From the NCBI GenBank assembly GCA_045863855.1, contig BTVV01000092.1, positions 1 through 24,772 on the forward strand: 24,772 nt of DNA, read 5' to 3'. Source of the stretch: Planctomycetota bacterium (lineage in GTDB: Bacteria; Planctomycetota; SZUA-567; H5-PLA8). Positions within the stretch are counted from its first letter, which is position 1; every line of letters starts with the position of its first letter. Positions 2,948 to 22,486 of the stretch are shown piece after piece. The notes beneath the pieces are model-generated. The model was not told where the DNA came from. It ran no database searches and saw only the letters and a list, made by a program, of their open reading frames with translations. The position numbers were made by a program, and so were the translations under genes.

Positions 2948-3424
2948 TCAGCCGTTCCTGACTTCGATCCGCTTCGCCGAAGTGCTTGGAAGCTTGGGCA
3001 GCTTCACCGTCAGCACGCCATTCTTGTGTTCGGCGGCGATCTTCCCTTCGTCCACGTCCTCGGCCAGCGGCACGCTGCGCGCGAACCGTCCGTACCGGCA
3101 TTCGGTCCGGCGCATTCCGCCTTCGTCCTTCGTGGCCTCCTGCTTCTTCTCGCCCGAAACCGTCAGCACGCCGTCGTGCAACTCGACGTGGATGTCCTTC
3201 GCGTCCACGCCCGGAAGCTCGGCGCGCACCGTGTACGCTTGGGCATCTTCCTTCACATCCATCGCGGGGCCCCAGTTCTCGAAGCCCGGCCAGACGGGCT
3301 CGAATCCGGCCCACGGATCTCGGAAGAAGCGGTCAATCACATGGCTCATTTCGTCCTGGAGCCGCTCCACCGGCGCCGGCGCGAGGTCCTCGCGCTTCTT
3401 GGCGCGCCAAGGCAGCAAGTTCAT
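2948..3424 (-). CDS. Hsp20/alpha-crystallin small heat-shock protein
   Basis: PAMDVKED..YTVRAELPGVDAKDIHVEL..GVLTVSGEK, YGRFARSVPL and AEHKNGVLTVKLPK; AAAGGAGG RBS. Confidence 0.95.
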   Translation of the reverse strand: MNLLPWRAKKREDLAPAPVERLQDEMSHVIDRFFRDPWAGFEPVWPGFENWGPAMDVKEDAQAYTVRAELPGVDAKDIHVELHDGVLTVSGEKKQEATKDEGGMRRTECRYGRFARSVPLAEDVDEGKIAAEHKNGVLTVKLPKLPSTSAKRIEVRNG

Positions 3425-3460
3425 GGCATCCTCCTTTCTCGGTGCACCCGCCCCCCGCGC

Positions 3461-3838
3461 TCACCGCGCCTCGATCTCGATGCGGCGCGGCTGCCGGCTC
3501 GCGGGCTTCGGCAGATGCAGGATCAACACGCCGTCCTTCAACTCGCCGGCAATGCGAGCGGCGTCCACGGCCGCATCCGCGATGCGGAATTCGCGCCGGA
3601 AATCGCCCACGCCGTATTCGCCCAAAAGCACCCGGGCCCCCTCCGGATGGCGCTGCGGCACACGCGCCGACACCGTTAACGTGCCCTCGCTGAAATCCAC
3701 CTGCACGTCTCCGGACTTCACGCCCGGCAATTCCGCAACGACGCGGAATTCGTCGGCCGTCTCGATCAAATCCGCTCGCGGCAAGTAGCGCCGCGCCGCC
3801 TCGGTTCCCGCCGGAACTTCGCACGCTTGCTGGCTCAT
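3461..3838 (-). CDS. Hsp20/alpha-crystallin small heat-shock protein
   Basis: PRADLIET..FRVVAELPGV, GDFRREFRI and GELKDGVLILHLPK..PRRIEI; AAGGAGA RBS. Confidence 0.93.
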   Translation of the reverse strand: MSQQACEVPAGTEAARRYLPRADLIETADEFRVVAELPGVKSGDVQVDFSEGTLTVSARVPQRHPEGARVLLGEYGVGDFRREFRIADAAVDAARIAGELKDGVLILHLPKPASRQPRRIEIEAR

Positions 3839-3870
3839 GGACCGTTCTCCTCTTCTCCTGGGGTGAATGC

Positions 3871-4305
3871 TTACTCGATCGAACGAATCTCGATCTTGCG
3901 CGGCTGGCTGGAAGCAAGCCTGGGCAGGACGACCGAAAGCACGCCGTCCTTCAGCTCAGCGCGCGCCTGCCCGGCATCCAAGTCGGCCGGGAAACGCACC
4001 GTGCGCGAAAATGGACCCAGCGGGCGCTCCCGCCGATGCACCGTGTCTTGCTCACCGAAAGCCGGCTTGTACTCGCCCTTAATCGTCAGCTCGCGCTGAT
4101 GGACGACCAATTCCAGTTCATTCAGCTTCAAACCCGGCAGTTCCGCCTCGACCCGGTAACCCTCCGGCGTTTCCCACACGTTCAAAGCCGGGAACGCACC
4201 CGCGGACGGGCTCCCATTCGCTCCGAAAAAGCCGTGAAATAACCCATCCATCTCGCGCTGAAATTGCGCAAACGGCGAAGCCGTAACCATACGTCGCGTA
4301 AGCAT
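3871..4305 (-). CDS. Hsp20/alpha-crystallin small heat-shock protein
   Basis: FPALNVWET..YRVEAELPG, RRERPLGPFSRTVRFP and AELKDGVLSVVLPR..PRKIEI; AAAGGGG RBS. Confidence 0.94.
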   Translation of the reverse strand: MLTRRMVTASPFAQFQREMDGLFHGFFGANGSPSAGAFPALNVWETPEGYRVEAELPGLKLNELELVVHQRELTIKGEYKPAFGEQDTVHRRERPLGPFSRTVRFPADLDAGQARAELKDGVLSVVLPRLASSQPRKIEIRSIE

Positions 4306-11529: not shown

Positions 11530-12561
11530 GCCTTCCAGGGTCCCGTCTTCGGTAATGGCCTTGGGCGACCAAGCGATCGACCCGTTGGCATTGACGATCT
11601 GGCGCACATGCTCGCCGTCGAAATCGACCTGAAATCCCACCGGCATGAGCAGGTAATTCACGAGCTTGGGGCGCAAATCGAGCAGGCGAAACGCGGGCAT
11701 GACCTCCCAGCGCCGCGGATCGGCCTCGACGCGCTTGATATCGGCCGGATCGCCGGGGCCAACCTGCCACCCCGACTTGCCCGGCGCGGGAAAGTCTTTT
11801 CGGAACAACCGCACCCGCTTGTAATCGAGGCACCCGCGCGCGACCCGGATCTCGTCGGTGAACAGACTCGGCATCGGCTTGCGAACCTGAGCTAGATCCA
11901 CGGCCTCCTGCTGCGCCGCGGTCACCTCGAATACCTTGGTCAGGTCGTCGATCAGATCGTCGAACGGGTTGCGCGAAAAGTTGGGCGCGCACAGAATCCG
12001 TTCGTCCACCCGCGGCAGCACACCCAACACGAACCAGTTGAAGACGAAGCGAAAATCTTCGGGATAATCGCCCTCGGCGTTCACCAATTCGCTGACGAAT
12101 TGCAGCAGATCCATGGCGCGCGACTGATACTTCGGGTCTGCGCGCAGCAGCAGCGTGAGATGGCCGAGCTGCTTGCGGCAGATCAGGCGCGTGTCTTTCT
12201 GGTCTTCCTGAACGGCCGCTTTGGGTTTGGCCTTCCAGGCCATTTTAGGCGGCGCCAACCCTTTGAATTTATCGGCGTTGGGCGACTGCACGGTACGGCT
12301 TCCGGCGGTGCTCCCGAAGGCGTTTTGCCTTCCCGAACCGTGCGGCGAGGCGGACTCTTCCGGTCCATTGGTCGCAGGCTCGGCCGGTTCGGGCGCCGGC
12401 TCGGAAACGTGAACGGGCGCCGGCGCCGGAACCGCCGCCGTGGCCGGCTTGCCCGGCACGCGCAGCTTGTTCGCGCACTTCGGACAACTGACGACGATGC
12501 CTTCGAATCCGGTGAGGTCCGGCCATTCGTGTCCGCAAACGCATGCAACCGGCAACGCCAC
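11524..12561 (-). CDS. Zn-ribbon + Pro/Ala-rich linker + Imm33/DUF2185-like C-terminal domain protein
   Basis: N-terminal CVCG...CPKC, a PAPAP linker, and C-terminal SGWQVG...LLDLRPKLVNYLLMPVGFQVDFDG resembling Imm33-family domains; GTG start after GAGGG. Confidence 0.6.
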   Translation of the reverse strand: MALPVACVCGHEWPDLTGFEGIVVSCPKCANKLRVPGKPATAAVPAPAPVHVSEPAPEPAEPATNGPEESASPHGSGRQNAFGSTAGSRTVQSPNADKFKGLAPPKMAWKAKPKAAVQEDQKDTRLICRKQLGHLTLLLRADPKYQSRAMDLLQFVSELVNAEGDYPEDFRFVFNWFVLGVLPRVDERILCAPNFSRNPFDDLIDDLTKVFEVTAAQQEAVDLAQVRKPMPSLFTDEIRVARGCLDYKRVRLFRKDFPAPGKSGWQVGPGDPADIKRVEADPRRWEVMPAFRLLDLRPKLVNYLLMPVGFQVDFDGEHVRQIVNANGSIAWSPKAITEDGTLEGS

Positions 12562-12656
12562 GCTAGAACCCTCTGGAACCGCAACCGAACCGAGTGTTAC
12601 AGCTCAGGGATGCTACTCAATCACCATACGCTTGTCACCAGAAGGCTGCTGACCCC

Positions 12657-12686
12657 AAAAAAGAAGGCCGCCCGAAGGCGGCCTTC
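12657..12686 (-). terminator. intrinsic terminator of the selenoprotein gene
   Basis: Minus strand GAAGGCCGCC-TTCG-GGCGGCCTTC-TTTTTT: a 10-bp perfect stem, a C(UUCG)G tetraloop and a U-tract. Confidence 0.92.
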
Positions 12687-12714
12687 CCGATCGTCCCACG
12701 GCCTCTATCTATGT

Positions 12715-13728
12715 TTATTTATACTGGCTCATCAGATCCTCGGCCTGCTGTGCGGCCTTGGTGCCGGGATAACGCTGCACAAGCATCTGGCAGCCGCCCA
12801 TCATTTGCTGAATGGCGGCAGCGTTCGCGCGGCGGAATTGCTCGTTTCTGGGATTCTTCTGCCCCGCAACCGGCTTGAGCGCCTCATTCATCTTTTCGAT
12901 CTGCAACCAGACCCCCGCGGCTTCCAGCTCTTTCTTCACCGCCGGATCGTTGCGCATCGTCTGCGCTTCTTTTTTGGCCGTCTCGCCGATCTCGTCCCCG
13001 GCGAATTGCAGCGAGATGCGCTCGAGATTCTTGAGGCTTCCCGCCGGATCTTCCGCCTTACGCGCCAGTGCGGAATCGAGCTGCCGCTTCGCCGCTCCTT
13101 CGAGCGCTTCGAACATCATTTTGGCTTCGCCGGCTTCGGCCGCATCGGTGCTGTTGACTTTGGTGCGCAAGGTCTTGAGCACCGCACCCAGCCCTTGACC
13201 GGCCTTGATCTGCGCCGCCTGCGCCGCGAGCTTCGTATACGGCCCGGGACCGGCCATGGCCGCCGAGGTCTCGTTCAGCAGTTCTTTGACTTTTTTCTCG
13301 AGTTCGGCGCCGCGAGGATCTTCGACTGCCAGTTTGCCGTCCGCGCCGAAAAGGAACCCGTGAGGAATGCCGCGCACGTTGGCCCCGCGCAGATCGCCTC
13401 CGGTCGTAAGCTGAAACTTCACGCCTTTACCCTGCGCCATGCTGACGATGGCGTCCTTCGCACTGCCTTGGCATTCCAAACCGACGATGTGAAAGCCCTG
13501 ATCCGCGTACTTATTGTATAGCTCCGCCAACCTGGGGAGCCCAGCGACACACGGCCCTCACCGCGTACCCCAGAACTCAACGAAGACCACCTTGCCCTTC
13601 AAATCCGCCGAAGACAGGCTCGGACCGTGCACCGTCGTACCGGGATTCAAATCGTCCAGCGTCATCGCGGATGCTACCGACGAAACCGTCAGCACCCCCG
13701 CTAGAACCAAAAGACTCGTACCGCGCAT
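12715..13728 (-). CDS. exported TlpA/redoxin-family thioredoxin-fold selenoprotein (UxxC; Sec57 encoded by TGA at 13558-13560) with a helical C-terminal domain, 337 aa
   Basis: ORFs 13558..13800 and 12715..13530 are in the same frame and read LKGKVVFVEFWGTR-TGA-GPCVAGLPRLAELYNKYADQGFHIVGL, the TlpA pattern FWAxWCxxC. The cis-Pro loop GIPHGFLFGADGKL is present. Signal peptide MRGTSLLVLAGVLTVSSVASA; AAAGGAG RBS 8 nt before ATG 13728. Confidence 0.88.
13520..13541 (-). promoter_or_regulatory. putative bacterial SECIS element
   Basis: Nucleotides 17-38 after the UGA read GGCUCC-CCA-GGU-UGG-C-GGAGCU, which forms a stem with one bulge and an apical GGU loop; the CAGGU resembles the E. coli fdhF SECIS apex. 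Confidence 0.7.
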
Positions 13729-13906
13729 GGCCATGGCTCCTTTCAGCCCCATTCGTCCGATCCCATCGTGCCCACTATCCAATAAGGTAGCCCCTTCCAC
13801 GACACGCTACAAGTATCGAGTGTACGGCTTTACACAGGCCTACCTTGTCTAGTAAGGTGGACGGAGGTCTAGTCCACTTGCTTCAACTAAGCCGAGAAAG
13901 TCTCCC

Positions 13907-16525
13907 ATGCACACCACGCCTGTCCTAACCTCCTTGGACCGCTTGACCTTAAGTGTGATCCCCAAAATTCGCCAAGCCACCCAAGGCAAGCGTATGGTGG
14001 CGTTGGTCAAACAGCTCGTCGCTACCGAACGCTGGAACCGCTTCGACCGCTGGCAAAGCACGACCCGAACCTTGGTCCGCGCGTATCGCGATGCGGGCGC
14101 CCATGCGGAAGTGTATCGTGCGCCGACCGGCGGCGCGTTGGGCTCGGGACGCTGGATCGTCGCCGAAGCCTCGGACGTGCACACGCTTCGCGCCGAGATC
14201 GTGGCGCCCTTTCGCCGCCCTCTGCTCGACGCTCAAGAGAATCCCTGGCACGCGGTCCAATGGACGGCGGGCACCGCAGCCGAAGGGCTCACCGGTACCT
14301 TGGTGGTGGAAGACGATCTCGAAGAACTGAAACACCGCCCGGCGGATCGCTTGCGCGGACGCTTCGTACTTACGCGGCTGGAACCGCGCGTCACGCGAAC
14401 CTTGCTCTTCGATAAAGGCGTGTTGGGAGTGGTGTACGACTGCCCGGTTAAGGATCTGCCCGGTGCGACGGGCTGGCTTAAGTTCGGCTGGGGCTCCTTA
14501 CCCTACGGCGAAGCATCGGCTCGCCTGGTGGGCATGGCCCTTTCGCAACGCGCGGGCGAGCGCCTGCGCGCGGAACTCGCGAAGCATAAGGCCGTCCGGT
14601 TGCGCGTGAAGGCCGATGTGCGGCGCTACGCCGGAACGCACGACGTCGTCAGCGGCGTGGTGCGCGGCGCGGCCGATCCGCAGGACGAAGTCTGGGCGGT
14701 CGCGCACAGTTCAGAACCCGGAGCGCTGGACAACGCCAGCGGCGTCGCGGTCTGTGTCGAGATCGCGCGCGTCCTGGAGGCGCTGATCGCCAAGGGTGCA
14801 CTCCCCCGCCCCAAGCGTTCGATCCGCTTTTTGAGCGGTTACGAATGTTACGGATTCTTCCACTATCTGGAGCACGCGCGGCGCTTGCAGCCGCCGCTGG
14901 CGGGCGTCTGCATCGATACCGTCGGCGCGAAGCCTGAACTCTGCGAACAGCATCTGCGCTGGCACGCAACGGTGCCCGGTTCGGCGGATTTCGTGGACGA
15001 ACTGGGCTCGCGCTGCCTGGAAGCCGCATCCACCATCGATTCCGCCGGGTACGTGCTCGAACGCCGGCCCTTTGTCTCGACCGAAGACACGCTCCTGGGC
15101 GATCCGCAATTCGGGTTTCCCTGCCCGTGGTTGACCAATCATCCGTTTCGCGGTTACCACAGCGACGCCGACACGCCCAAGCTGCTGCATGCGCCGGGCT
15201 TGGCGCTCAGCGCCGCCGCCATGGCCGGATATCTGTACTATCTGGCCGATGCCGCGACGCCCGAGGCGCTCGAAATGGCGGAGTCCGTCACCTCTCGGAC
15301 GCTTGCGGCGCTGGCCGAGCCGGGCCTCTCGCCCGCCCTGGCCCATCTGCGCCGCGAGGCGCATCGCACCAATCTGAATCGCTTGCGGCGCTGGTGGTGG
15401 GGCGGCCGGAAGTCCGATCTGGAAGCGCGCTTCGCCGCCGCGGCCGCGCGCGTGGCCGCGGCCGGACCGCGCGCGGAGCCATCCGCCGCCAAGTCCAGCC
15501 CCGTGGTGCGGCGCACCGCACCGCTGGCGCCCGCCGCCGAGAATACGCCACCCGAACTCTGGCAACGCATCGCGCAGAGCGGCCTGTCCAAATGGGCGCT
15601 CTATTGGGCCGACGGAAACCGCACGCTGGAAGAGATTCGCCAACTCATCGGAGCCGGACGCAAGCAAGCCCTAGAAGCTCAGGCCGTCCTCGACTACTTC
15701 CGCGCGCTGGAACAATTGGGCTATGTGCGCCTGTCCCAACCGCGCGGGCAGGCCTCGCGCGCGCAATTGGTGCGCGATCTCAAGCGCCTGGGCGTCAAGC
15801 CCGGGATGGACCTGATGGTTCACAGTTCGCTCTCGAAGGTCGGACCCGTGGCCGGCGGCGTGGAAACCGTGATCGACGCGCTGCTCGAAGCCATCGGCGC
15901 GCGCGGAACGCTGCTGATGCCTTCCTTTAACCACTTCGCCGCGCGCGTCTACAATCCGCTGACCACGCCCACCACCAACGGCGCGCTGCCGGATGCCTTC
16001 TGGCGGCGCACCGAGGCCGTCCGCAGCCTCCAAGGCACCCACGCTGTGGCGGCTTTGGGACCGAAAGCCGAGTGGTTTTGCGCCGGACACCTGGAGCACG
16101 GAATCTGGGCGGCCAAAAGCCCCATCGGCCGGCTCGTCCACCACGGCGGCTACATTCTGGGGCTGGGCGTGGATAACACGAGCAGCACGGCGTACCACAT
16201 CGGCGAAATCTCGCTGGGTTGCGGCTGCCTGGACATGTTCGGAAGCCGCGATTGGGTCGTAACGGAATCGGGCGAAGCGATGGAAGCGGGCGGTCTGGCC
16301 TGGCGCGCCGGCGGCTGTCCGGTCAGCCCGCGCAAACTGGACTCGGACCTGGACGCCGCGGGACTACAGCGGCACGGCAAGGTCGGGCAGGCCGACTGCA
16401 TGCTGGTCAAGGCCCACGACGTCTGGGCGACGCGCCGGAAGCAATTGGAAAAGATCTGTCCGGGGTGCTCGGTTAAGCCACACCGCCGCCGCGGCGGACT
16501 GTACGCGGAGATCCATCCGGTCTGA
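13907..16525 (+). CDS. fusion of an M28-family (DUF4910-like) zinc peptidase, a winged-helix-like linker and an AAC(3)/YokD-family N-acetyltransferase
   Basis: M28 motifs VAHSSEPGALDNASG, GYECYG, CIDTVG and YHSDADT with a PA-like insert; WADGNRTLEEI wHTH-like segment; AAC(3) motifs DLMVHSSLSKVG, GTLLMPSF, RSLQGTHAVAALG and LGVDNTSSTAYHIGE. Confidence 0.85.
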   Translation: MHTTPVLTSLDRLTLSVIPKIRQATQGKRMVALVKQLVATERWNRFDRWQSTTRTLVRAYRDAGAHAEVYRAPTGGALGSGRWIVAEASDVHTLRAEIVAPFRRPLLDAQENPWHAVQWTAGTAAEGLTGTLVVEDDLEELKHRPADRLRGRFVLTRLEPRVTRTLLFDKGVLGVVYDCPVKDLPGATGWLKFGWGSLPYGEASARLVGMALSQRAGERLRAELAKHKAVRLRVKADVRRYAGTHDVVSGVVRGAADPQDEVWAVAHSSEPGALDNASGVAVCVEIARVLEALIAKGALPRPKRSIRFLSGYECYGFFHYLEHARRLQPPLAGVCIDTVGAKPELCEQHLRWHATVPGSADFVDELGSRCLEAASTIDSAGYVLERRPFVSTEDTLLGDPQFGFPCPWLTNHPFRGYHSDADTPKLLHAPGLALSAAAMAGYLYYLADAATPEALEMAESVTSRTLAALAEPGLSPALAHLRREAHRTNLNRLRRWWWGGRKSDLEARFAAAAARVAAAGPRAEPSAAKSSPVVRRTAPLAPAAENTPPELWQRIAQSGLSKWALYWADGNRTLEEIRQLIGAGRKQALEAQAVLDYFRALEQLGYVRLSQPRGQASRAQLVRDLKRLGVKPGMDLMVHSSLSKVGPVAGGVETVIDALLEAIGARGTLLMPSFNHFAARVYNPLTTPTTNGALPDAFWRRTEAVRSLQGTHAVAALGPKAEWFCAGHLEHGIWAAKSPIGRLVHHGGYILGLGVDNTSSTAYHIGEISLGCGCLDMFGSRDWVVTESGEAMEAGGLAWRAGGCPVSPRKLDSDLDAAGLQRHGKVGQADCMLVKAHDVWATRRKQLEKICPGCSVKPHRRRGGLYAEIHPV

Positions 16526-18552: not shown

Positions 18553-19479
18553 TTACTTGGCGACGGCGGCCTTCAGGCGCTCCAGCGCCGCCGTTCCGGC
18601 TTCCACGCCCAAGCGGGCGCGTTCCTGCAAACTCGGTTTCCGGCCCAGCACGCTCGGGCCGGCCACGCGCAGGTTTTCGTGCAGCGTCGCGGCTTCCAAG
18701 CGTGGAACCTGAATCGCGAAAGCTTCGTGGGCGGTGAGCGCCAAGTTCGCTTTATCGAACCCGGGCTTGCGGGCGCGCAAAGCTTCGACGGCCTTGGCGA
18801 TCGCAAAACGCTGCTCGCTTTCGGCGCGATCGGCCGATGCGGAATCGACGACGAACGAAACTTGAGCCTCGCTCTTCCAGAGCGTCGGACGCACGAGTAC
18901 TTCGCGCAGGCCTTCGACCTCGAAGCTCTCGGGAGCGGCGGGCGGTTCGACGGCGCAGACCATGAAGGCCCGCGAAACGGCTTTGCCGGCCGCGCCTTGG
19001 AATTTCGCACCGGCGCTGCGCGCGAGGCGCGCGTTTTCGGTGGCATCCACCAGCACATTGGCTTGAACCGCCAAGGGACCGGATTTCGTGGTCAACCGCA
19101 CCAGTCCGCGTTCCGCATCGCAGGCGCCGGCCAGCGCGCGGAAGTGCACCCGAATCTGAGCCGCCTGGACCAGTTCGTCCATCAGCAGTTCCCAGGCGAC
19201 CGGATCCAACGTACCGTCGCGAAAGGCATTACGTGCGGTTAAGGCATCGACGATGCGCTGCAGCGCGGGCGGAACCGCTTGCCCGCGGGCGAGGTACAAT
19301 TCCAGGCCGTGCGGCACTTCCCAGCCCAAGGCTCCGCGCTCTTCGACGAGCAAAGTCTCGACTCCGGCTTCGGCCAGCGTCAGCGCCGCCGTCAGTCCGG
19401 CCAGCCCTCCGCCCAGCACCGCGGCCTCGCCACGATCCAGCAGGTCCAAGTCCTGATTGAACTTAAGTGCGTCGGTCAT
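18553..19479 (-). CDS. short, divergent FAD-dependent oxidoreductase paralogue (308 aa)
   Basis: AAVLGGGLAGLTAALTLAEAGVETLLVEERGALG Rossmann motif and LVDATENARLARSAG. ATG 19479 follows GGGAGAG; the ORF-track extension to 19992 is the antisense shadow of the divergent gene. Confidence 0.78.
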   Translation of the reverse strand: MTDALKFNQDLDLLDRGEAAVLGGGLAGLTAALTLAEAGVETLLVEERGALGWEVPHGLELYLARGQAVPPALQRIVDALTARNAFRDGTLDPVAWELLMDELVQAAQIRVHFRALAGACDAERGLVRLTTKSGPLAVQANVLVDATENARLARSAGAKFQGAAGKAVSRAFMVCAVEPPAAPESFEVEGLREVLVRPTLWKSEAQVSFVVDSASADRAESEQRFAIAKAVEALRARKPGFDKANLALTAHEAFAIQVPRLEAATLHENLRVAGPSVLGRKPSLQERARLGVEAGTAALERLKAAVAK

Positions 19480-19681
19480 GCGCGGAGCTCTCCCGGTCCC
19501 TTGGTCAAGTGGACTCACTAAACCACGCCGAGGTGCACTTGGGAATGAAGGAAGGCGTCGAAGTATCTGGACTTTCCGGCTGGCCGGCCAATCTGGAAAC
19601 GAGATGCGACCCAAAAGCGTCCCAAGGGTTACATTAAAGGATAAGAGCTGCTTCGACTTCCACCCGGATGACTCCCCGCCG

Positions 19682-22486
19682 ATGCGCGCACCGTGGTCCA
19701 CGCTACCTAAAGGCATAGGCCGGATCGGTTTACTCCTGATCGTCGCGTTCTTGGTGGTGGCTGCCGCCGTGTTCGTTTTGGGCTTCAGCGGCAGCTCGGG
19801 GACGCCGCCCGCTCCACCGGCTGCGATGCTCGTTTGGGAAGCCGAATCCGCGCAAGTGCTCGCCCATCCCCTGGTCTTCGAGCCGAACCGCGAGGCCGCG
19901 CACGGCGCGGTGCTGGCCATTCCGCTGGGAGCGGGCAAGGCCGAACACGCTCCGCCGGCCGGCGCGGAGTACGTGCTCGACGTTCCCGCCACCGGCGCTT
20001 ATGCGCTGTGGGTCCGCGCGTGGTGGACGGACGGCTGCGCGAACTCGGTGGCCGCGTCCGTGGACGACGGCGAGCAGCACGTGCTGGGGAACGACGGGAC
20101 GTATCACGCGTGGCATTGGGTCGAAGGTCCGGAGGTACAACTCAAAGCCGGTGCGCAACGGCTCAAGCTTTATCACCGCGAGGACGGGATCAAGCTCGAC
20201 CAGTTCGCGCTCGTGCCCGTCGATTCGGCCTATGCTCCCGTCGGATTCTTACAGACTCAGGCTCCGAATACGGCCGTGGCCCAGCTCGAGCCGCCCCCTT
20301 CCGAAACGATCCCGGTAGAGCCGAAGCCCGCCGAACCGCGAGCGGAGGCGGAAGCACCGGCCGTTGCGGAGCCTCGCGAAGCTCCGGCGGAAGCGGCGCC
20401 GGTCAAACCGGCCGAGCCCGCTCCGCCGCCGGAAAAGCCGCGCACCAAGCCGTTCGTCGCGGGCATCGCGGGTTGCTACCGCGACGGATTCGAAGGGCAT
20501 TTGGTATCGCTCGGCATCCCCTACGTGCGCCTGTACCAGCACGAACTGGAAGACGCAGAGAAGCTGAAGGACATCGACCTTCTGGTACTCAGCGACCCGC
20601 GCGCCAACAGCACCAAGTTTTTCCAGACGCTGTACGCCTTTCTCAAGAGCGGCAAAACGGTAGTGATGGAGATCCTGCCGAACGAACGCGCCCCGCAGAA
20701 GCGCGACGATCCCGAGGATCTGTTCCTCCAGCTAGAGAACCGCCAAGGGTACTGGAAGCGCGGCTTCCTCCTCGCCGACGACTCCCGATTCTTCGCCGGT
20801 GTGCCGAAGGAACGGAGCTACCACGAGGATGTGCGCTGCAACGGCTTGCCGCTTGCCACGCGCGCCCCCGGAGCCCAAATCTACGGCCGCCAGGCGTCTC
20901 ATAACGCCGGCAACGTGAGGGGCGGTGCGCTGCTGGTTCGTGAAGTCGGCGCCGGCAAGCTCTACTACATGGGCCTGCCCGCAGCCTTTGCGGCGATGTG
21001 GCGCGAACGGCAGGTCGATCCGTTCGTCGCGAACATTCTGCGCGACGCGCTACAGAACCGGTACCCCTTTGCGTACGAGCGCTTTACGTATGCGCCCGCC
21101 GACCGTGCGGCGGTGCGGCTCAGCGACGACTTCATGCGCACACCGGGCGAAAAAGGCGGCTGGAAGGTGCTCTCCGGCCGCTTCACGCTCACAGGTGAGG
21201 CCGCCGGCGGCGAAGAATCCTTCGCCGTCCGCGCTTCGGGACCGGCATGGTCAGCCGCCGGACAAGAGTCTTGGCGCGATTACCGCACCATGGCGGCGGT
21301 GAAACTCCTCTCGGGCGAAGCCGGCATCTGGCAAAGCGCCCCCGACGGCGGCCAATTGAGCCTCACGCTGCGCGAAGGCGGCGCCGAAGCGGTGCTTGCC
21401 CTGCATTATCCGGATAAGGTTCGCACGCTGGGCTCGGCGAAGGTTCCTGTCTACGCGGGTTGGCGCAGGCTTGCGCTCTTCCGCCGCGACGGGAAAACTC
21501 AAGGCTACGTGGACGGCGCGCGCGTCCTGGAGGTTGCCGACGCGCCCGATGCTCGCGGGCGAACGGGGCTCTGCGCGGTCACAGGCGAAGCCTGCTTCGA
21601 TGACGTGCGCATCGTCGATACGGCCCTCCTGACGCCCGGCCGAGACGTGGCCCCGGACGAGGAATCGTCCGAGCGCTGCATGGACCGTTACTACCAGCGC
21701 TGCTTCGAAAAATTGAGCGTCTACGCGCCGCAATGGTTTCTCACACCTGACCCGGGCAATCCGTCGCGCCTGAACATTCCCTTGCCGCTGTATGCAGGCG
21801 GAACGCTGGAAGCCGATGGCGAACGCGTAGCGATTCCCGCCGGTCCGGACTTGCCCGGGCTGAAGTGGCCGCAAGGCCATGCACCGGCGCGCGATCTGGC
21901 GCTGCACACCACGGGCTGGAAGGACTTCCAGTTCGCGGGGCGCGTAACCGACTGGTACGTGGGGAGCGGGCGCTGGGGACAGGTCAATCGCTGGAGTTGC
22001 TCGCCCGATTACCTCTGGTACGGCGGCGAATCGCGGCAAGATGCTGTGCTTTGGTACAAACACGAGGTCAGCGGGCCGGTGGCGGTGGAAGCGCTGATGG
22101 CGCCGCGCGCCGACGCGCGCTACGGCGAAGAAATAGGACGCGATCTCGACTTGGTCCTGTTCGGGAACGGGAAAGATTTAAGCCAAGGCTATCAATTTAC
22201 GGTGCTGAGCGAGAGCGACGGCTGCCGCGTCACCAGAAACGGAAAAACGCTGGGCGAAGCGCGCGGGATCGGCCTGCCGGCCGGACACGCGCTCCACCAC
22301 TCCTGGTTCAGCGTCGCCGCGCACTGCTCGGGCAGCAAACTGCGCTTCTATTTCGACCGCAGATTGGTGCTGGAAATCGACGATCCGGATCCACTGACAC
22401 GCGGCCAATTGGGCGTCTGGACGCAAAAGAATAAGATCAGCCTCGCGCGCTGCACGCTTTCGCTGGCCGGTCCCGACGGGAAATAG
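19682..22486 (+). CDS. membrane-anchored multi-domain protein: CBM-like jelly roll, Pro-rich linker, GATase-like domain and two DUF1080/LamG-like beta-sandwich domains
   Basis: N-terminal TM LLLIVAFLVVAAAVFVLGF; WEAE...GAYALWVRAWW...WHWV...LKAGAQRLKLYHREDGIKLDQF; PEPKPAEP linker; LLVREVGAGKLYY; SDDFMR..GWKVLSG..WRDY..ACFDDVRI; IDDPDPLTRGQLGVWT. Start uncertain (19604 or 19682). Confidence 0.7.
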   Translation: MRAPWSTLPKGIGRIGLLLIVAFLVVAAAVFVLGFSGSSGTPPAPPAAMLVWEAESAQVLAHPLVFEPNREAAHGAVLAIPLGAGKAEHAPPAGAEYVLDVPATGAYALWVRAWWTDGCANSVAASVDDGEQHVLGNDGTYHAWHWVEGPEVQLKAGAQRLKLYHREDGIKLDQFALVPVDSAYAPVGFLQTQAPNTAVAQLEPPPSETIPVEPKPAEPRAEAEAPAVAEPREAPAEAAPVKPAEPAPPPEKPRTKPFVAGIAGCYRDGFEGHLVSLGIPYVRLYQHELEDAEKLKDIDLLVLSDPRANSTKFFQTLYAFLKSGKTVVMEILPNERAPQKRDDPEDLFLQLENRQGYWKRGFLLADDSRFFAGVPKERSYHEDVRCNGLPLATRAPGAQIYGRQASHNAGNVRGGALLVREVGAGKLYYMGLPAAFAAMWRERQVDPFVANILRDALQNRYPFAYERFTYAPADRAAVRLSDDFMRTPGEKGGWKVLSGRFTLTGEAAGGEESFAVRASGPAWSAAGQESWRDYRTMAAVKLLSGEAGIWQSAPDGGQLSLTLREGGAEAVLALHYPDKVRTLGSAKVPVYAGWRRLALFRRDGKTQGYVDGARVLEVADAPDARGRTGLCAVTGEACFDDVRIVDTALLTPGRDVAPDEESSERCMDRYYQRCFEKLSVYAPQWFLTPDPGNPSRLNIPLPLYAGGTLEADGERVAIPAGPDLPGLKWPQGHAPARDLALHTTGWKDFQFAGRVTDWYVGSGRWGQVNRWSCSPDYLWYGGESRQDAVLWYKHEVSGPVAVEALMAPRADARYGEEIGRDLDLVLFGNGKDLSQGYQFTVLSESDGCRVTRNGKTLGEARGIGLPAGHALHHSWFSVAAHCSGSKLRFYFDRRLVLEIDDPDPLTRGQLGVWTQKNKISLARCTLSLAGPDGK

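Follow-up and report, generated by a model that had tools for sequence, protein, structure and literature searches.

When two short genes are called in one frame, and the only stop codon in that frame falls on a catalytic position, the question arises whether they are two genes at all, or the halves of one gene whose stop is read as selenocysteine (Sec). This question was raised by the first-pass annotation of a stretch of 24,772 nucleotides (the window) from a planctomycete genome (G000, 93.9% complete), which had proposed a 337-aa periplasmic seleno-oxidoreductase split by standard gene calling. No strand was named there; the feature sits on the minus strand. As argued below, the two called short genes almost certainly form a single gene for an exported thiol-redox enzyme whose active site contains selenium.

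One reading frame and its single internal stop

Read from position 13728 down to 12715, the minus strand gives 337 codons with a single internal stop, a TGA at codon 57 (13560-13558) within FWGTR-*-GPC, which agrees with the claim of one frame broken only at the first position of the thioredoxin motif. Calling with translation table 11 returns two ORFs in this frame, of 80 aa from a GTG (13800-13558) and of 271 aa from a TTG (13530-12715); the downstream piece has, as had been said, only a TTG to start from. The ribosome-binding site and signal peptide attributed to the upstream piece were recovered, the latter as a prediction: AGGAG precedes the ATG at 13728 (a second ATG, at 13734, is just 2 nt from it), and residues 6-16 are hydrophobic (mean 2.5) and lead into V-A-S-A, which resembles a cleaved signal peptide. 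The N-termini of homologues resemble this region of the redoxin. The strong terminator described after the intact frame corresponds to a GC-rich hairpin 3' of the stop codon (fold z -3.48; 0 of 200 shuffles equally stable), though a promoter/terminator scanner left it out of its terminator list and gave no promoter upstream of the gene.

Of the original proposal, the single 337-codon selenoprotein frame stands, and the word periplasmic has the predicted signal peptide as its one basis; on that basis, export is very likely. A plus-strand reading was dropped, since it held nothing relevant and its ORF at 12100-13521 is an antisense shadow that is also present opposite the homologues. Coordinates are collected in Table 1.

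Table 1. Features of the split gene, further Sec candidates in the same genome and carriers of the C-terminal domain (positions refer to the window unless a contig is given)
Feature	Position	Strand	Basis
Shine-Dalgarno-like AGGAG	13737..13741	-	sequence; 8 nt ahead of ATG 13728
Whole gene, 337 codons + TAA, one TGA read through	12715..13728	-	translation; full-length homology
Predicted cleaved signal peptide, residues 1-21	13666..13728	-	hydrophobic stretch; A-S-A; homologue N-termini; low pLDDT 1-19
ResA/TlpA-like redoxin (thioredoxin-fold) domain, ~residues 22-153, U57-G-P-C60 + cis-Pro122	13270..13665	-	Pfam; Foldseek
In-frame TGA, codon 57, predicted selenocysteine	13558..13560	-	homologue alignment; independent contigs
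Predicted bacterial SECIS hairpin, +17 to +38 after UGA, apical loop GGU +26 to +28	13520..13541	-	folding; homologues
C-terminal all-helical domain, ~residues 155-337	12718..13266	-	model pLDDT 93; fusions
Intrinsic-terminator-like hairpin: 10-bp stem, UUCG loop, U6	12657..12686	-	fold statistics
MsrA, Sec candidate	G000 C24:45219	-	TGA scan, Pfam
AhpC/TSA UxxC protein, Sec candidate	G000 C19:11568	+	TGA scan, Pfam
Exported heavy-metal-associated (HMA) domain protein, UxxC, Sec candidate	G000 C3:15006	+	TGA scan, Pfam
Rdx/SelW protein, CxxU, Sec candidate	G000 C4:108705	-	TGA scan, Pfam
Second exported redoxin, Sec candidate	G000 C41:33140	-	TGA scan, Pfam
selD	G000 C231		own in-frame TGA
Tail-bearing proteins	P0010, P0013, P0017, P0030, P0039, P0045, P0046, P0047, P0060, P0086, P0128
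Tail-bearing loci	L031, L032, L033, L072, L075, L040, L109, L118

The read-through protein as a redoxin

With U read as C, the read-through protein matches the Pfam families PF08534 (Redoxin; 38.8 bits, cut-off 26.6) and PF00578 (AhpC/TSA; 34.6, cut-off 26); no NCBIfam family reaches its cut-off for the redoxin, and the other 14 aligned members match the same families. An AlphaFold2 model of the whole protein (pLDDT 85.6, low over residues 1-19) shows a thioredoxin fold in which a helix begins at U/CxxC and a cis-Pro loop is present, and in Foldseek it matches ResA structures best (E 2e-8, target TM 0.71). The loop is the G-I-P motif already pointed out from the sequence, and its P122 is invariant in 15/15 aligned homologues. 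More distantly, 60 full-length relatives were picked from the best 150 protein-library matches; they have Cys at site 57 in 52/60, C60 in 55/60 and the cis-Pro in 59/60. The inner dipeptide of the motif varies (GP, GA, PP). C313 was considered as a general catalytic residue and rejected, since it is invariant in 15 close homologues yet present in only 11/60 distant ones.

In the ResA, TlpA and CcmG redoxins, a disulfide is attacked by the first motif residue, the mixed bond that forms is resolved by the second, and electrons come from DsbD. The protein resembles the ResA/TlpA/DsbE (CcmG) group in its fold (with ResA as top match), in the W-x-x-x-C/U-x-x-C motif, in the cis-Pro and in the export signal. 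It differs in scoring far below the NCBIfam cut-offs for ResA (NF002854, 60/170), TlpA (NF047696, 33.8/230) and DsbE (TIGR00385, 29.3/123), in an apparently cleaved signal instead of a membrane anchor, and in the lack of cytochrome-c-maturation neighbours in the window. Two families of thioredoxin-fold (seleno)proteins, NF041054 (ResA-like WAxxUGC) and NF053656 (TUGYCR), show weak similarity, but their scores (20.5/300 and 16.3/100) are below the cut-offs and the motif here is UGPC, not UGC or UGYC. Overall, an envelope redoxin of the reductase type is predicted, and seems probable.

Two other activities have to be weighed. A selenoprotein that mainly reduces peroxide, like a peroxiredoxin or glutathione peroxidase, and not disulfides, would fit the weak Pfam GSHPx match (21.8 bits, below the cut-off of 27), the GPX structures among the lower fold matches, the partial conservation of Cys86 (18/60 distant relatives) in the strand after the active-site helix, and the resistance of Sec to over-oxidation that PMC13188914 describes. 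However, nearly all relatives have U/C-x-x-C and not U-x-x-T or T-x-x-U, the cis-Pro is kept in all but one, and the best matches in both sequence and fold are of the ResA/DsbE type, which leaves a peroxidase improbable. Less probable again is a DsbA-like oxidase that acts on exported proteins and binds its substrates through the helical domain. Predicted export, an extra helical domain and the variable inner dipeptide speak for such an enzyme, but the fold matches are reductases, and in DsbA the helical domain is inserted in the thioredoxin fold whereas the model here places it C-terminally.

Codon 57 in homologues and independent assemblies

Whatever the activity of the enzyme, its existence depends on the reading of the TGA. 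Among 61 related genomes, 12 full-length matches of at least 48% identity were found, including the query; the other 11 are 48-98% identical to the redoxin, and among named records, Planctomycetota bacterium MAGs come closest (98% and 65% identity). Exactly one TGA, always at site 57, is present in 10/12 matches (10 genomes, 6 genera), and thus in nine other genomes of the family, and the remaining 2/12 have Cys there. In a phylum sample, 69/301 genomes gave matches with E values of 1e-25 or lower, part of which are confined to the redoxin domain. From 24 further loci in this search, all belonging to other families, 27 matches were aligned; two of them do not cover the site, and the other 25 have 13 TGA (12 genomes, 9 families), 11 Cys and 1 Glu (all these TGA and Cys counts come from related genomes, and kin are not independent). 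Homologues had been expected to have Cys or TGA at this position, and with the one exception they do.

The coding sequence on both sides of the TGA is under purifying selection. Compared with the congeneric G002, the 35 codons upstream have 4 synonymous and 0 non-synonymous changes, and the 75 codons downstream 8 synonymous and 1 non-synonymous. The TGA is considered more than chance because homologues align TGA or Cys there and because both flanks are so constrained; signs of decay, which would have pointed to a pseudogene, are absent. As for sequencing error, 4 of 24 listed sequencing runs were compared with the window (X4, X5, X6 and X12). Contigs from X4 and X5, from two other studies that are not marked as possible sources, bridge codon 57 with no differing letter there (as contigs, not raw reads) and so show the same TGA; those from X6 do not reach it. 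Contigs from the RNA run X12 cover 13134-13446 and 13581-13817 and not the TGA, and since an RNA library may hold DNA, this coverage does not equal expression.

Could the TGA nevertheless be a true stop, in a pseudogene, through a sequencing error or between two separately translated pieces? UGA does end 6/16 long ORFs of the window, and databases hold truncated products that begin at residues 64-73, one of them an NCBI hypothetical protein. On the other hand, a break here would cut the remaining fold off from its nucleophile and from the signal peptide, and the same TGA is found in nine other genomes of the family, in 12 genomes of other families and in independent assemblies, with purifying selection on either side. 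A true stop seems very improbable and is already contradicted by conservation. The truncated records are as expected if split Sec genes lie behind them: among the best 150 library matches, 13 products were picked that start at residue 63 or later, and so past site 57. Together with the split into two ORFs here, they bear out the warning that pipelines miss or mis-call this gene.

Reading the codon as Sec, members with Sec and with Cys can be compared across the family. In a tree computed with site 57 masked (36 rows, P0135 being excluded for want of the motif), the Sec label needs four changes, and Sec and Cys members are intermixed in one supported clade; with the backbone of the 22-row clade open, the tree fits gain of Sec as well as its loss. 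Among the genomic redoxin-plus-tail copies examined, about half have Sec and the rest Cys.

Tandem paralogues of the redoxin-plus-tail family occur at L104 (G159 C29), L112 (G167 C274) and L097 (G110 C2); in G159 a Sec copy adjoins copies without TGA, and G167 has two Sec copies. Further redoxins of related genomes have a TGA at the equal motif position (L084 on G010 C42, L085 on G048 C90, L088, L089 and L090); in one of them a long Ig-like surface region is attached, and another has the motif U-x-x-A.

The predicted SECIS hairpin

In the bacterial SECIS model given in PMC13188914, a loop of 3-9 nt with G in its first two positions lies 16-37 nt after the UGA, at an energy of -7.5 or lower. 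The hairpin of this gene agrees with the model (loop GGU 25 nt past the UGA, -12.9 kcal/mol), and the TTG 'start' of the downstream ORF begins inside its loop. Loop and energy together fit in 10/10 Sec orthologues against 1/9 Cys homologues, with the loop alone fitting in 4/9 of the latter; in other families, the model fits 10/13 TGA matches, 3/13 failing it, against 1/11 Cys matches.

More specifically, the loop sequence GUUGG is kept in all ten Sec orthologues across three codon pairs (Arg-Leu, Gln-Leu and Ser-Trp) and relies on rare codons (AGG is 1/179 Arg codons and AGT 14/208 Ser codons elsewhere in these genes); between G000 and G007, one stem base pair changes from C-G to U-A. The contrast in GUUGG between Sec and Cys members is a fair one for G008 only, as the other 8/9 Cys homologues cannot or can hardly encode it. 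G008, the closest Cys orthologue (63% identical), has Cys57 and the same residues in the loop region, but encodes them with other codons and has no hairpin (-3.9). No selA, selB or selD was found in this genome (83% complete), and it is the cleanest control for the hairpin, as Cys, hairpin loss and the absence of detectable sel genes coincide. G016 (79% complete) has the TGA form; the search there found neither selA nor selD, and of selB only a partial match under the cut-off.

The hairpin by itself is not strong evidence. Synonymous recodings fold equally well in 5.7% of cases for this gene (2.7-19.5% over ten Sec genes), two of the Cys homologues have more stable folds than the majority of Sec ones, and one short fold window gives z +1.09. 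A crude genome-wide scan passed 254 of 57,916 TGA candidates, mostly in antisense frames, and therefore the generic model was not taken alone as evidence.

Neither the hairpin nor the separate helical domain, which makes up more than half of the protein, had been mentioned in the first-pass annotation.

Selenocysteine machinery and further candidates

The organism was held to have the Sec trait, and its genome does encode selA (E 3e-133), selB (336 bits, cut-off 242), selC, the tRNA-Sec (70.7 bits, cut-off 47), and selD, the last with its own in-frame TGA; all four are above curated cut-offs. Besides SelD, the crude TGA scan combined with Pfam gave five further Sec candidates (Table 1). The SelD, MsrA, AhpC/TSA, HMA and Rdx candidates have GGU, GGUC or GUU loops at a similar distance, and the second redoxin does not fold into such a loop.

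That UGA is reassigned throughout the genome (to Trp or Gly), or read as Cys, is scarcely credible: a second tRNA with a TCA anticodon on C125 (Aragorn) would favour it, but this call is unconfirmed and not among 13 RF01852 matches, in the window UGA serves as an ordinary stop, and codon 57 aligns with Cys, not Trp or Gly.

The Aragorn call itself, a tRNA-SeC at G000 C125:17730-17828, is missing from the Rfam tRNA-Sec matches and is probably spurious. A 4.5-kb array in the same genome (C1:23667-28178) contains 26 tRNA genes, all on the same strand; PMC4807772 mentions degenerate tRNA clusters in planctomycetes.

The C-terminal helical domain

Residues ~155-337 are modelled with confidence as an all-helical domain. 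Above the Pfam cut-offs, it has no match (YfiO at E 0.075 in 1/27 members), nor is there a significant one among PDB sequences, in Foldseek (best E 0.22) or in VIA (best Z 7.4; BamD Z 7.0 over 62 residues). The Atlas leads are all under 0.9 and weak, some having TPR_6/YfiO in 11-38% of members, and a profile match to the helical tail of the more distant redoxin L034 (probability 45%) is a lead only. This lack of a family match does not show that the tail is a new fold.

The redoxin-plus-tail layout is common in the protein library, and the same tail also ends other proteins. The 11 library proteins scanned comprise four SASA carbohydrate esterases, one GDSL esterase, one alpha/beta hydrolase, one with NPCBM, two with sub-cut-off matches to carbohydrate enzymes only and two with none, and all 11 have a hydrophobic N-terminal stretch; at four loci of the same family, the tail stands behind an apparent GDSL esterase, by reading of the sequence. 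By these fusions, the tail is a mobile module, as yet with no Pfam family, that ends putatively exported esterases and hydrolases.

One further reading can be entertained, although we think it unlikely: the tail would be an undescribed envelope-sorting or docking module of Planctomycetota, which places a selenium reductase beside esterases and hydrolases to keep their cysteines right. In G000 itself, the search gave no further copy of the tail, and a sorting role there is weakened accordingly. If true, redoxin-plus-tail would make up a large selenoprotein family that is missing from the catalogues and linked to a novel secretion or display system.

Proposed mechanism

The best explanation overall, and a likely one, is an exported soluble selenoprotein in which UGA57 is recoded, acting as a thiol-disulfide reductase or isomerase of the envelope with a docking tail. 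SelB loaded with Sec-tRNA would bind the GGU-loop hairpin 25 nt downstream, so that UGA57 is decoded as selenocysteine, and the signal peptide would export the product. Sec57 would then attack a substrate disulfide and Cys60 resolve the mixed bond, after which the membrane protein DsbD may re-reduce the selenenylsulfide; a full three-domain DsbD is encoded in G000, on C40. Through its helical tail, the enzyme could dock to partners or at a site in the envelope common to other exported proteins. These steps differ in strength: the reading of UGA57 as Sec is highly probable, and the docking role of the tail, the weakest step, is a tentative suggestion that may well prove wrong.

Relation to known selenoproteins

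UxxC selenoproteins with PF08534, PF00578 and cd02966 are catalogued in PMC13188914, and the same UxxC classes in PMC9312934. Compared by class description, the catalogued redoxins of PMC13188914 share the Pfam domains, the Sec at the first position of UxxC and a SECIS in the coding region, and the protein described here differs in its extra C-terminal helical domain of ~180 residues. A word search of the main text of PMC13188914 finds no 'Planctomyc', 'signal peptide' or 'periplasm'. The Sec trait has been reported in planctomycetes (PMC4807772), and the tables of that paper list Sec 'thiol-disulfide isomerase-like thioredoxin' candidates, from the same phylum and each under two adjacent gene ids; they are listed without SECIS, and the likeness is one of table entries, not of sequences. 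In the literature searched, no description of the two-domain family or of the tail was found, though bioRxiv supplements and subscription journals may hold one.

The gene is thus a real, mis-split UxxC selenoredoxin with predicted export, of a class already known, for which we infer the substrate and the function of the tail. UGA recoding in a UxxC redoxin is a known principle, and the significance of the locus lies elsewhere: (i) it corrects a recurring annotation error, in that Sec members of a phylum-wide family are stored as truncated hypothetical proteins, (ii) it offers natural Sec/Cys pairs, including the one with G008, that suit testing what Sec adds in the cell envelope and (iii) its helical tail, an unnamed mobile domain that deserves a family model, is the one open point of interest.

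Genomic neighbourhood

The gene is a solitary one, flanked by a divergent peptidase-M28/AAC(3)-like gene on one side and by its own terminator on the other. In a clustering of 21 loci plus the window, generic kinases, in four loci, were the only partners conserved outside the genus, and the neighbourhood points to no substrate beyond the genus level. Elsewhere in the window, the products of 1161-2870 (+; 569 aa) and 19457-22486 (+; ~1000 aa) have no Pfam match at E 0.001. Three tandem genes at 2948-4305 (-) resemble, judging by their translations, what we take to be small heat-shock proteins. The gene at 13907-16525 (+) encodes an 872-aa protein in which a peptidase M28-like region is joined to a domain of the aminoglycoside 3-N-acetyltransferase family.
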